From the NCBI RefSeq assembly GCF_003334785.1, contig NZ_QOWV01000030.1: DNA of 24,767 bases; one strand, given 5' to 3'. This document shows positions 12,490 to 13,818 of the stretch, piece by piece (positions within the stretch are counted from its first letter, which is position 1; each line of letters begins with the position of its first letter). Origin of the DNA: Escherichia coli (GTDB lineage Bacteria > Pseudomonadota > Gammaproteobacteria > Enterobacterales > Enterobacteriaceae). The notes under the pieces are model-generated. The model was not told the origin of the DNA. It did no database searches and saw nothing but the letters and a program-made list of their open reading frames with translations. Made by a program: the position numbers and the translations under genes.

Positions 12490-12531
12490 GGATAATATTG
12501 CAGATCGTAAGAGTATGAGATGATCTTGCGT

Positions 12532-12560
12532 ACTGTCAGAGCACTGATTTCTCTGACAGT
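12532..12560. terminator. Perfect 10 bp inverted repeat (ACTGTCAGAG / CTCTGACAGT, 9 nt loop) between convergent patD and yncL; possible bidirectional terminator or RNA stability element
   Basis: Stem is visible directly in the sequence at 12532-12541 and 12551-12560. No U-tract follows on either strand, so function as an intrinsic terminator is uncertain. Confidence 0.35.
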
Positions 12561-12585
12561 ACGTGCTGCGTGCAAAATCACTACA

Positions 12586-12681
12586 TCAAATAAACCAGCC
12601 AAATCTCATAGAGATAAGAGTAAACAAACCAACAGCAGCAAAGAAATTTATCAGTACTACAGTTCTACTGGAAACATTCAT
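12586..12681 (-). CDS. yncL: Small membrane protein YncL, 31 aa
   Basis: Absent from the ORF track (too short). Minus-strand translation: MNVSSRTVVLINFFAAVGLFTLISMRFGWFI, stop TGA. GGTGG Shine-Dalgarno 5 nt upstream. A single predicted TM helix. Confidence 0.75.
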   Translation of the reverse strand: MNVSSRTVVLINFFAAVGLFTLISMRFGWFI

Positions 12682-12875
12682 TTTTGCCACCTTTTATCAT
12701 TGCCCCTATGTGTATAGTACGGGTTAAGAAAATCCGCAATAATACTCATTCTGAAGATGGATAAGGGCAAGTTGCTGTTTGATGATTTTTTCTCAAACTG
12801 GTGAAAAAACTTGATGTACGTCAAAAAATGACGCATATTTGCGCGCGTTTTATTCATCTGGTTGGACGCCCGTAC

Positions 12876-13049
12876 ATGTCTCTCTATCAACACATGCTTG
12901 TTTTTTATGCGGTTATGGCAGCAATCGCATTTCTTATCACCTGGTTTCTTTCTCACGATAAGAAACGCATCCGTTTCTTAAGCGCCTTTCTGGTGGGGGC
13001 AACATGGCCGATGAGTTTCCCGGTGGCGCTGTTGTTTTCACTGTTTTAA
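12876..13049 (+). CDS. ortT: Orphan small membrane toxin OrtT (YdcX), 57 aa
   Basis: Track ORF 12801..13049 (82 aa) was trimmed to the internal ATG at 12876, giving MSLYQHMLVFYAVMAAIAFLITWFLSHDKKRIRFLSAFLVGATWPMSFPVALLFSLF, a two-helix hydrophobic peptide typical of membrane-damaging toxins. No adjacent antitoxin gene is evident. Confidence 0.78.
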   Translation: MSLYQHMLVFYAVMAAIAFLITWFLSHDKKRIRFLSAFLVGATWPMSFPVALLFSLF

Positions 13050-13134
13050 ATCTTACTCACTGGCTTGACGGCACCACGCAGACTTATATCATTTGGATGA
13101 ATCGATAAATTTCACAAGTGGCTAAGGAGAAAGT

Positions 13135-13368
13135 ATGTCGCATCTGGATGAAGTCATCGCGCGCGTGGATGCCGCGATTGAAGAGAGCGTCATTGCCCAT
13201 ATGAACGAATTATTAATCGCCCTGAGCGATGACGCGGAGTTAAGTCGGGAAGATCGCTACACCCAGCAGCAACGTCTGCGCACAGCGATCGCCCATCACG
13301 GTCGCAAGCATAAAGAAGATATGGAAGCGCGCCACGAACAGTTAACCAAAGGCGGCACCATCCTCTGA
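13135..13368 (+). CDS. ydcY: Small cytoplasmic protein YdcY, 77 aa
   Basis: AGGAG ribosome-binding site 7 nt upstream. Hydrophilic and charged. Confidence 0.82.
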   Translation: MSHLDEVIARVDAAIEESVIAHMNELLIALSDDAELSREDRYTQQQRLRTAIAHHGRKHKEDMEARHEQLTKGGTIL

Positions 13369-13818
13369 TTAAAATGAGCGTCTGGCTACCAACCAGGCGC
13401 CAACCACAAGTAAAATTGCGCCACAAATTGGGCCGAACAACGCCCGTAGTGGTACGCCATGACTGCGGAAGATATCCAGCATCAGACCGCCAATCAGCTG
13501 ACTGGCGACCAGTACAGCAATAGTTGTCGCCGCTCCCACATTCTGATATCCGCTGATACTGGCGAAGACAAAAAACGATCCCAGCAAGCCAGGTATAAGT
13601 GTCCACCAGCGCACGCTGGACACCAGTTCGCCAAACCCCGCCATGCCTTGTTTAAACCATAAAATAGAAACAAAGAGCACAATCCCCACCAGTGAGTTCA
13701 GCAACATGGCGATGAGAATGGTAGAGGAGGTCTGGGTGATGCGCACCATCAGCGTGTTCTGGACAACCAGACCAATTCCGGCGGCAATCAAAAAAGCAAG
13801 GGTGAGCGACTGATTCAT
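13369..13818 (-). CDS. ydcZ: Inner-membrane protein YdcZ (DMT-superfamily-like small permease), 149 aa
   Basis: Hydrophobic four-TM protein. Its stop codon abuts the ydcY stop (TGATTA), and its start overlaps the mnaT stop in an ATGA arrangement. Confidence 0.85.
   Translation of the reverse strand: MNQSLTLAFLIAAGIGLVVQNTLMVRITQTSSTILIAMLLNSLVGIVLFVSILWFKQGMAGFGELVSSVRWWTLIPGLLGSFFVFASISGYQNVGAATTIAVLVASQLIGGLMLDIFRSHGVPLRALFGPICGAILLVVGAWLVARRSF

Follow-up and report, generated by a model that had tools for sequence, protein, structure and literature searches.

How is a membrane toxin restrained when no antitoxin accompanies it? This question is raised by a stretch of 24,767 nucleotides from Escherichia coli (contig NZ_QOWV01000030.1 of assembly GCF_003334785.1), here called the window, in which positions 12876-13049 of the plus strand represent ortT (ydcX), a known orphan toxin gene of this species. 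The gene, its toxicity, the associated membrane damage and its orphan status were published in 2015 and are not new (PMC4344625). The new angle of the present analysis is only the assignment of a published FNR peak to the core promoter of ortT, together with the conservation of the FNR box in 85/85 sequences. From the position of this box we tentatively suggest that FNR holds the gene down under anoxia.

The original prediction had read the gene as OrtT (YdcX), a hydrophobic peptide of 57 amino acids (aa) with two helices, and both parts of this reading hold. The RefSeq entry 'ortT: orphan toxin OrtT' (WP_000061178.1) has coordinates identical to 12876-13049, and the translation, 57 aa followed by TAA, is MSLYQHMLVFYAVMAAIAFLITWFLSHDKKRIRFLSAFLVGATWPMSFPVALLFSLF. 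OrtT gives a full-length match to the Pfam model PF10753 (Toxin_GhoT_OrtT; E = 3.2e-27; positions 1-55 of 55), and aligns without gaps to K-12 GhoT, the sequence of which was taken by its K-12 coordinates, with 36/57 identical residues (63%) and F38 aligned. Orthologues from Citrobacter and Intestinirhabdus carry V, A or I in place of F38. The Kyte-Doolittle profile contains two hydrophobic segments with peaks at about residues 8-23 and 35-52 (grand average of hydropathy +1.11), joined by a basic loop (D28 K29 K30 R31 I32 R33). On family membership and hydropathy, OrtT is a two-helix inner-membrane protein of the GhoT/OrtT family. Among six Escherichia lineages the variable sites of the coding sequence are distributed over codon positions 1/2/3 as 11/8/34 (34/53 in the third), and this excess at third positions indicates that ortT is under purifying selection and clearly a real gene. 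The coding sequence alone is found in 5416/5426 complete E. coli genomes (at least 95% identity), and ortT is hence a core gene. A query of 1051 bp around ortT gave a 100% identical match, and 5417 records of complete E. coli genomes were matched. The nucleotide search of these genomes with the coding sequence recovered ortT alone and no ghoT. In a few E. coli records the matches to the ortT region are located on plasmids (8 places with the 1051-bp query, 6 with the coding sequence), and some genomes possess two or three partial places.

The published biology of this protein is extensive. A growth assay on induction, proposed earlier as a check of the toxin assignment, has already been reported: induction of ortT from pCA24N with isopropyl beta-D-1-thiogalactopyranoside (IPTG) arrested growth and lysed 99.99% of the cells (PMC4344625). 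Overproduction damaged the inner membrane, with an enlarged periplasm and an empty cytoplasm in transmission electron microscopy, lowered adenosine triphosphate (ATP) 27-fold and increased persistence, and the changes ATG>ACG and F38R relieved toxicity (PMC4344625). The deletion mutant showed better growth and respiration or metabolism under trimethoprim and sulfamethoxazole, and the ortT transcript rose with serine hydroxamate (SHX), mupirocin, trimethoprim, RelA production and heat (PMC4344625). Regulation was ascribed in that paper to predicted sigmaE and sigmaH promoters, with no FNR and no mapped transcription start site (TSS) (PMC4344625). In vitro, membrane integration of YdcX was enhanced 4.8-fold by SecYEG (PMC5093552), and ortT is reported to be induced within macrophages. 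In Pantoea sp. MT58, ydcX is carried on plasmid pMT58-1, and disrupting the gene reduces fitness in contaminated, acidic groundwater (PMC11467524).

We compared the region upstream of ortT in 85 sequences, namely the window and 84 further loci, of which 80 represent species found in a GTDB genome scan and 4 are non-redundant contigs carrying database homologues; the scan includes Escherichia, Salmonella, Citrobacter, Enterobacter, Kosakonia, Lelliottia, Leclercia, Phytobacter, Cedecea, Buttiauxella, Pantoea and others. The alignment displays one sharply conserved block amid otherwise unrelated flanks, and this block has the form of a promoter. A ydcX start at 1515384 (+), with 37 reads and a 5' untranslated region (5'UTR) of 29 nt, appears in the TSS table of Kim et al. 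2012 (PMC3415461). The 51 nt printed 5' of this start end in CATATTTGCGCGCG and are identical to the window save for a known single-nucleotide polymorphism, and the TSS therefore corresponds to position 12847, with the 5'UTR extending over 12847-12875 of the plus strand. At a position that fits this start lies the -35 hexamer TTGATG (12811-12816, +), which is TTGATN in 84/85 sequences and TTGACG in the other. After a spacer of 17 bp in 80/85 sequences, the window included, follows the -10 hexamer CATATT (12834-12839, +; -13 to -8), which is CATATT in 76/85 sequences, CATAGT in 4 and CATAAT in 3. A G+C-rich discriminator, TGCGCGCG (12840-12847, +), ends with the TSS as its last G, and is GCGCGCG or GCGTGCG in most species. 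Peaks of sigma70 and sigmaS in chromatin immunoprecipitation (ChIP) have been reported over the ortT promoter region, as has an RpoS peak in genomic SELEX (systematic evolution of ligands by exponential enrichment) in the yncL/ydcX spacer.

The weak ribosome-binding site noticed earlier also proves to be genuine. The Shine-Dalgarno match consists of just GGA (12864-12866), 9 nt from ATG 12876, and the core match is 3 nt in 67/85 sequences and at most 4 nt in all 85; because no orthologue exceeds a 4-nt core match, the weakness is a real and conserved trait. Control by a structured or riboswitch-like leader was considered and rejected, as the leader with the early coding sequence folds at -12.7 kcal/mol (z = +0.84 against shuffles); RNAalifold on leaders from 16 genera or species found 0 conserved pairs. 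A 9-bp hairpin inside the coding sequence (TAAGAAACG/CGTTTCTTA, 12959-12980) was likewise rejected as a conserved structure, being perfect in only 3/85 sequences and largely forced by the KKR-I-RFL codons.

The same alignment bears on where translation begins. As the original prediction stated, the annotated ATG 12876 is internal to an 82-codon open reading frame (ORF), which opens at GTG 12801 and contains a further in-frame ATG at 12828. The Met at 12876 is invariant, and the amino-acid alignment collapses 5' of it (Met26 of the 82-aa ORF). An in-frame stop occurs within 25 codons upstream of this Met in 68/84 species, and within 12 codons in 15, while two Escherichia species (L017, L020) have no in-frame start at all upstream of it. 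The distance from the -10 hexamer to the ATG varies between 31 and 38 nt across the 85 sequences, not in multiples of three, and the variable sites in the apparent N-terminal extension (12801-12875, +) are spread over the codon positions as 10/10/7 in the six Escherichia lineages, without periodicity. The extension is non-coding and holds the promoter and the 5'UTR; it is never translated, because the promoter lies wholly inside it and the mRNA starts at 12847, downstream of both GTG 12801 and ATG 12828. OrtT is translated from ATG 12876. The 82-aa alternative that had been left open can thus be excluded without ribosome profiling, since the TSS lies past both upstream starts and the extension shows no conservation of a coding kind.

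Within the conserved block we found an FNR box, TTGATGTACGTCAA (12811-12824), which agrees with 9/10 consensus positions, i.e. has 1 mismatch to TTGAT-N4-ATCAA in a pattern match, and is centred at -29.5 from the TSS. In a window this long, chance alone would yield about one match with no more than 1 mismatch, and the case for the box therefore rests on its conservation and on ChIP rather than on the match. The box occupies a fixed position in 85/85 sequences, being perfect in 40, with 1 mismatch in 30 and with 2 in 15. It overlaps the -35 hexamer and the spacer, so that a bound dimer would cover -36 to -23. Of the two half-sites, the downstream one (GTCAA, 12820-12824) falls between the promoter hexamers, in spacer bases whose conservation is expected only from factor binding. 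The distance from the box to ortT is kept in more than 50 species that lack yncL, the divergent neighbour in E. coli, at the locus and have unrelated upstream sequence. Because this distance is kept whether or not yncL adjoins, the site belongs to ortT. Judged from these alignments, the FNR site is part of the ortT core promoter and under strong selection. One more FNR-like sequence in the window, TTGATTACCATCGA at 19415-19428 (1 mismatch), is within chance expectation.

Occupancy of the site has been reported three times. For the same site the K-12 motif TTGATGCACGTCAA was published, and ydcX was an anaerobic FNR target in ChIP on microarrays (Grainger et al., PMC1802558); the four spacer bases of the box are GTAC in this strain and GCAC in K-12, a difference at non-contacted positions. 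A strong FNR peak at yncL/ydcX was present in every dataset of Myers et al. 2013, with a motif score of 14.54 (PMC3688515), and the site was among the stronger FNR peaks under both fermentation and nitrate respiration in Federowicz et al. 2014 (PMC3974632). Table S9 of Myers et al. lists yncL/ydcX by name in categories 3-5 (FNR-bound, no expression change), and gives the TSS as 'Unknown' and the target as 'Indistinguishable', whereas the TSS of Kim et al. 2012 and the 85 sequences assign the site to ortT at -29.5.

What FNR does at this promoter is a separate matter. Since a dimer bound at -36 to -23 would be expected to block RNA polymerase, we suggest that FNR represses ortT in anoxia and that repression is released when O2 or nitric oxide (NO) inactivates FNR, a reading that we rate close to, though short of, an even chance. 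With no antitoxin present, the amount of OrtT would be determined as it is made, through a modest promoter and the weak, family-conserved ribosome-binding site, and an FNR dimer on the 14-bp site over the -35 hexamer and spacer would additionally gate this synthesis. The geometry predicts that the promoter would be occluded as long as FNR is active and would be freed upon its inactivation by O2 or NO. In anaerobic uropathogenic E. coli (UPEC) with nitrate as the NO source, ydcX rose 11.85-fold in an hmp norVW nrfA mutant (PMC5320621), together with cyo, sdh and nuo, which are repressed by FNR/ArcA (PMC5320621). This rise, and the induction of ortT within macrophages, are consistent with repression by FNR. 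A further step, for which we see about one chance in three, is that FNR serves as a functional stand-in for the absent antitoxin, leaving OrtT silent in the anoxic gut and expressed only upon loss of the Fe-S cluster to O2 or NO.

Several points weigh against these readings. The toxicity and membrane damage of OrtT rest on published work, mainly with plasmid overexpression, and the start codon 12876 rests on the position of the TSS, on conservation and on one published start-codon mutant, not on direct mapping; no start-site ribosome profiling data for ortT were found in the literature. G+C-rich discriminators are typical of promoters inhibited by guanosine tetraphosphate (ppGpp) and DksA, so that a conserved one is unexpected here and awkward to reconcile with the reported induction by the stringent response (SHX, mupirocin, trimethoprim). 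On the effect of FNR, the published expression results disagree. Myers et al. 2013 observed no FNR-dependent change of yncL/ydcX in anaerobic glucose minimal medium (PMC3688515), and Federowicz et al. 2014 list [ydcX, ydcY] as 'N/D' in fermentation and as 'Activation' in nitrate respiration (PMC3974632). The latter label is likely indirect, as it is also attached to nuo, thr, gapA and many housekeeping operons.

The dependence on overexpression leads to the possibility, rather unlikely in our view yet far from negligible, that OrtT is not primarily a toxin but a small, conserved protein of the inner membrane that serves a housekeeping or regulatory function, its lethality being an overexpression artefact of the kind common among hydrophobic peptides. 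All lysis and ATP data indeed come from IPTG-induced pCA24N, and the gene is a core gene (5416/5426 genomes) under purifying selection, vertically conserved beside patD in many genera. It also lacks an antitoxin, which is unusual for a true toxin of a toxin-antitoxin (TA) system, and the fitness loss of the Pantoea ydcX mutant in contaminated acidic groundwater implies a beneficial function. However, the single-copy deletion affects growth and metabolism as would be expected if OrtT were a growth brake, F38R lowers toxicity just as it does in GhoT, and OrtT shares 63% identity with GhoT, a bona fide type V toxin.

FNR might also activate rather than repress ortT. Such a class II arrangement, which seems unlikely, would require a second promoter whose start lies some 12 nt further downstream, near 12859-12860, placing the box at -41.5/-42.5, and would operate in anaerobic cells, especially with nitrate. 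The 'Activation' entry for [ydcX, ydcY] in nitrate respiration (Federowicz Table S4) and the 11.85-fold higher ydcX with nitrate in anaerobic UPEC can be read in this way, and E. coli has a T-rich TTTTAT at 12848-12853, within a region just 3' of the discriminator whose positions are moderately conserved. Yet in Salmonella, Citrobacter, Kosakonia, Cedecea and Pantoea no conserved -10-like hexamer with the critical A(-11) occurs where such a start would need it, the CATATT 9 bp past the box is nearly invariant, and the mapped TSS is solely 12847. The label itself is probably indirect, for instance through the loss of nitrate reduction and NO production in the fnr mutant. A class II FNR-activated promoter was set aside on account of the missing -10 hexamer, and is kept as a minor rival.

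It is doubtful, and to a greater degree, that FNR occupies the site silently as far as ortT is concerned, or that the site serves yncL. Neither yncL nor ydcX changed in an FNR-dependent manner in anaerobic glucose minimal medium, nor was a change seen under fermentation, and a box of this quality is expected about once by chance, as stated above. An O2-dependent change of yncL was seen solely in the hns/stpA mutant (Myers Table S11, PMC3688515). Against a silent site stand the fixed distance to the ortT start in 85/85 sequences, including the more than 50 species without yncL, and the second half-site in the promoter spacer, which factor binding alone would conserve. Moreover, the box lies 113.5 bp from the yncL TSS, which is not a typical FNR position. 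Of these three readings of the site we rate repression of ortT by FNR highest, and we leave part of the probability to others, such as effects specific to further growth conditions.

The earlier statement that no antitoxin neighbours the gene is confirmed. A tblastn search of the whole window with GhoS gave chance matches only (E >= 3.2), and a search of the whole window at Rfam gathering thresholds gave no matches. Rfam, leader folding and RNAalifold revealed no additional small RNA (sRNA) or conserved small ORF around ortT; the earlier suggestion that the region may hold such elements finds no support in these and the conservation checks. In published experiments, OrtT was neutralised neither by YdcY or GhoS, nor by the intergenic regions on its upstream (194 bp) and downstream (85 bp) sides, nor by a genomic library (3x) (PMC4344625), and a construct of ortT with ydcY did not lower toxicity (PMC4344625). 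An antisense search, proposed earlier, had therefore been largely carried out by Islam et al. 2015, with negative outcome, and our own search found no sRNA either. YdcY was rejected as antitoxin, since it belongs to DUF2526, adjoins ortT in Escherichia only and is experimentally negative (PMC4344625), and YncL was rejected as a general partner or antitoxin because its adjacency to ortT is confined to a few genera. At ortT we found neither the adjacent, co-transcribed GhoS-type endoribonuclease that defines a type V TA system, nor the antisense sRNA and structured, translation-blocking 5'UTR that define type I.

A hidden type I-style antisense RNA overlapping ortT is very improbable. Cho et al. 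2014 list minus-strand TSSs within ydcY at 13202 (5 reads) and 13299 (6 reads), with no terminator-like site between them and ortT. However, constructs with ydcY or the flanking regions and the genomic library left toxicity unreduced, no Rfam family, minus-strand promoter-like site or conserved structure is found there, and ydcY is not next to ortT outside Escherichia. The two minus-strand TSSs are assigned to the 'yncL' transcription unit, and transcripts from them would be antisense to both ydcY and ortT. Least credible of all is a real product of 82 aa (from GTG 12801) or 73 aa (from ATG 12828), which is effectively refuted already: the frame is open in this strain, and proteins extended to 73-97 aa are predicted by a number of gene callers and appear in some Salmonella RefSeq records, but both candidate starts lie 5' of the mapped TSS within the -35/FNR/-10 block, the extension is unconserved, with stops in 68/84 species, non-triplet indels and no codon periodicity, and the Pfam match begins only at residue 29 of the 82-aa ORF, covering its residues 29-82, which are residues 3-57 of annotated OrtT.

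Compared with known systems, the gene in the window is the same as K-12 ortT, with an identical protein, the same synteny (patD-yncL-ortT-ydcY-ydcZ) (PMC4344625) and upstream and downstream spacers of 194 and 85 bp as in that paper (PMC4344625). With GhoT of the type V system GhoT/GhoS it shares the length of 57 aa, the gapless 63% identity, PF10753, the two-helix topology and Phe38, as well as the published phenotype of membrane damage, ATP loss, ghost cells and lysis. The genetic setting is different: ghoT is the second gene behind ghoS in an operon, and GhoS cleaves ghoT mRNA, whereas ortT is transcribed from a promoter of its own that carries an FNR box, the window encodes no homologue of GhoS, and GhoS does not rescue from OrtT (PMC4344625). 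The reported triggers also differ, being antifolates and the stringent response for OrtT and carbenicillin and cefoxitin for GhoT. Type I toxins (Hok, TisB, Ibs, Ldr) resemble OrtT in being small hydrophobic inner-membrane peptides that depolarise or damage the membrane, in causing persistence on overexpression and in having their synthesis kept very low. Unlike them, ortT has no antisense sRNA, no translational coupling to a leader ORF and no long structured 5'UTR, its leader being 29 nt long and unstructured.

The neighbours yncL (31 aa, opposite strand) and ydcY agree with those named in the original prediction, the RefSeq gene order being patD, yncL (-), ortT (+), ydcY (+), ydcZ (-) and mnaT (-). 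The prediction had also placed ortT in a cluster with overlapping convergent transcription, which does not apply to ortT itself, as yncL is divergent and ydcY co-directional, but does apply to the pairs patD/yncL and ydcY/ydcZ. The gene yncL (12586-12681, -) encodes a stress-response membrane protein (NCBIfam NF000537, E = 2.9e-19; RefSeq). Its TSS at 1515241 (-) corresponds to window position 12704 (PMC3415461), 143 bp from the ortT TSS at 12847 (+). The yncL promoter region (12704-12760, -) reads TTGCGG-17-TATACA, with a 5'UTR of 23 nt, and is highly conserved in E. coli, Salmonella and Citrobacter. The gene adjoins ortT only in Escherichia, Salmonella, Citrobacter, Intestinirhabdus and one further locus, and is not beside it in Enterobacter, Kosakonia, Lelliottia, Leclercia, Phytobacter, Pantoea and others. 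The convergent genes patD and yncL are separated by an inverted repeat (12529-12563) whose 13-bp arms are 100% complementary and enclose a loop of 9 nt. It is a probable shared terminator hairpin that may act in both directions; neither side has an obvious U-tract.

Downstream, ydcY (13135-13368, +; Pfam PF10735, DUF2526, E = 1e-46) has its own promoter and is not an antitoxin; it is next to ortT in Escherichia only. A promoter-like TTGACG-16-TATCAT at 13065-13092 fits a published TSS at 13099, one of two weaker starts (13099 and 13110). The strongest published 5' end of ydcY (1515672, 284 reads, sigmaS) coincides with the A of its ATG at 13135; the main transcript would then be leaderless, or this end would be a processing site. 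The convergent genes ydcY and ydcZ (13369-13818, -; RefSeq) have stop codons that abut at 13368/13369, and their 3' ends must therefore overlap. In Salmonella and Citrobacter loci (L002, L003 and others) ydcY-ydcZ is absent, and a convergent operon of srfC/srfB-type virulence factors (PF10139, PF07520) lies 10-45 bp past ortT. Overlapping convergent transcription across ortT is thus plausible in these genera, not in E. coli.

A second, diverged GhoT/OrtT paralogue is found in tandem downstream of ortT, at about +260 to +390, in Kosakonia, Phytobacter and relatives (L022-L024, L030, L041, L045, L046, L058, L064, L067, L068, L072, L076). In some Enterobacter-like loci (L006, L037, L039) a paralogue lies about 0.9 kb upstream of ortT (about -940). 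These copies have no FNR box. The downstream tandem copies possess a strong Shine-Dalgarno sequence (GGACAGGAGG or GGAAAGGAGG) and conserved upstream motifs of their own (GCGTGAC..., TGCAACAT).

For the annotation of the family, the consequence is that the extended 73-97-aa models of ortT in many automated annotations, some Salmonella RefSeq records among them, are wrong; they are artefacts, because the TSS and the conservation show that it is the promoter that is being translated. FNR is absent from the 2015 toxin study and from the later papers of the toxin field that we consulted, and the FNR literature records ydcX as strongly bound, with target and TSS 'unknown' and without effect. The site at ortT bears on both fields, that is, on how a toxin without an antitoxin is restrained and on whether 'silent' ChIP peaks are condition-dependent. 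If the repression that we propose is true, one of the strongest 'silent' FNR peaks would become a condition-dependent repressor site, with its box conserved in at least 84 enterobacterial species, and OrtT would be a growth brake gated by oxygen and nitrosative stress.

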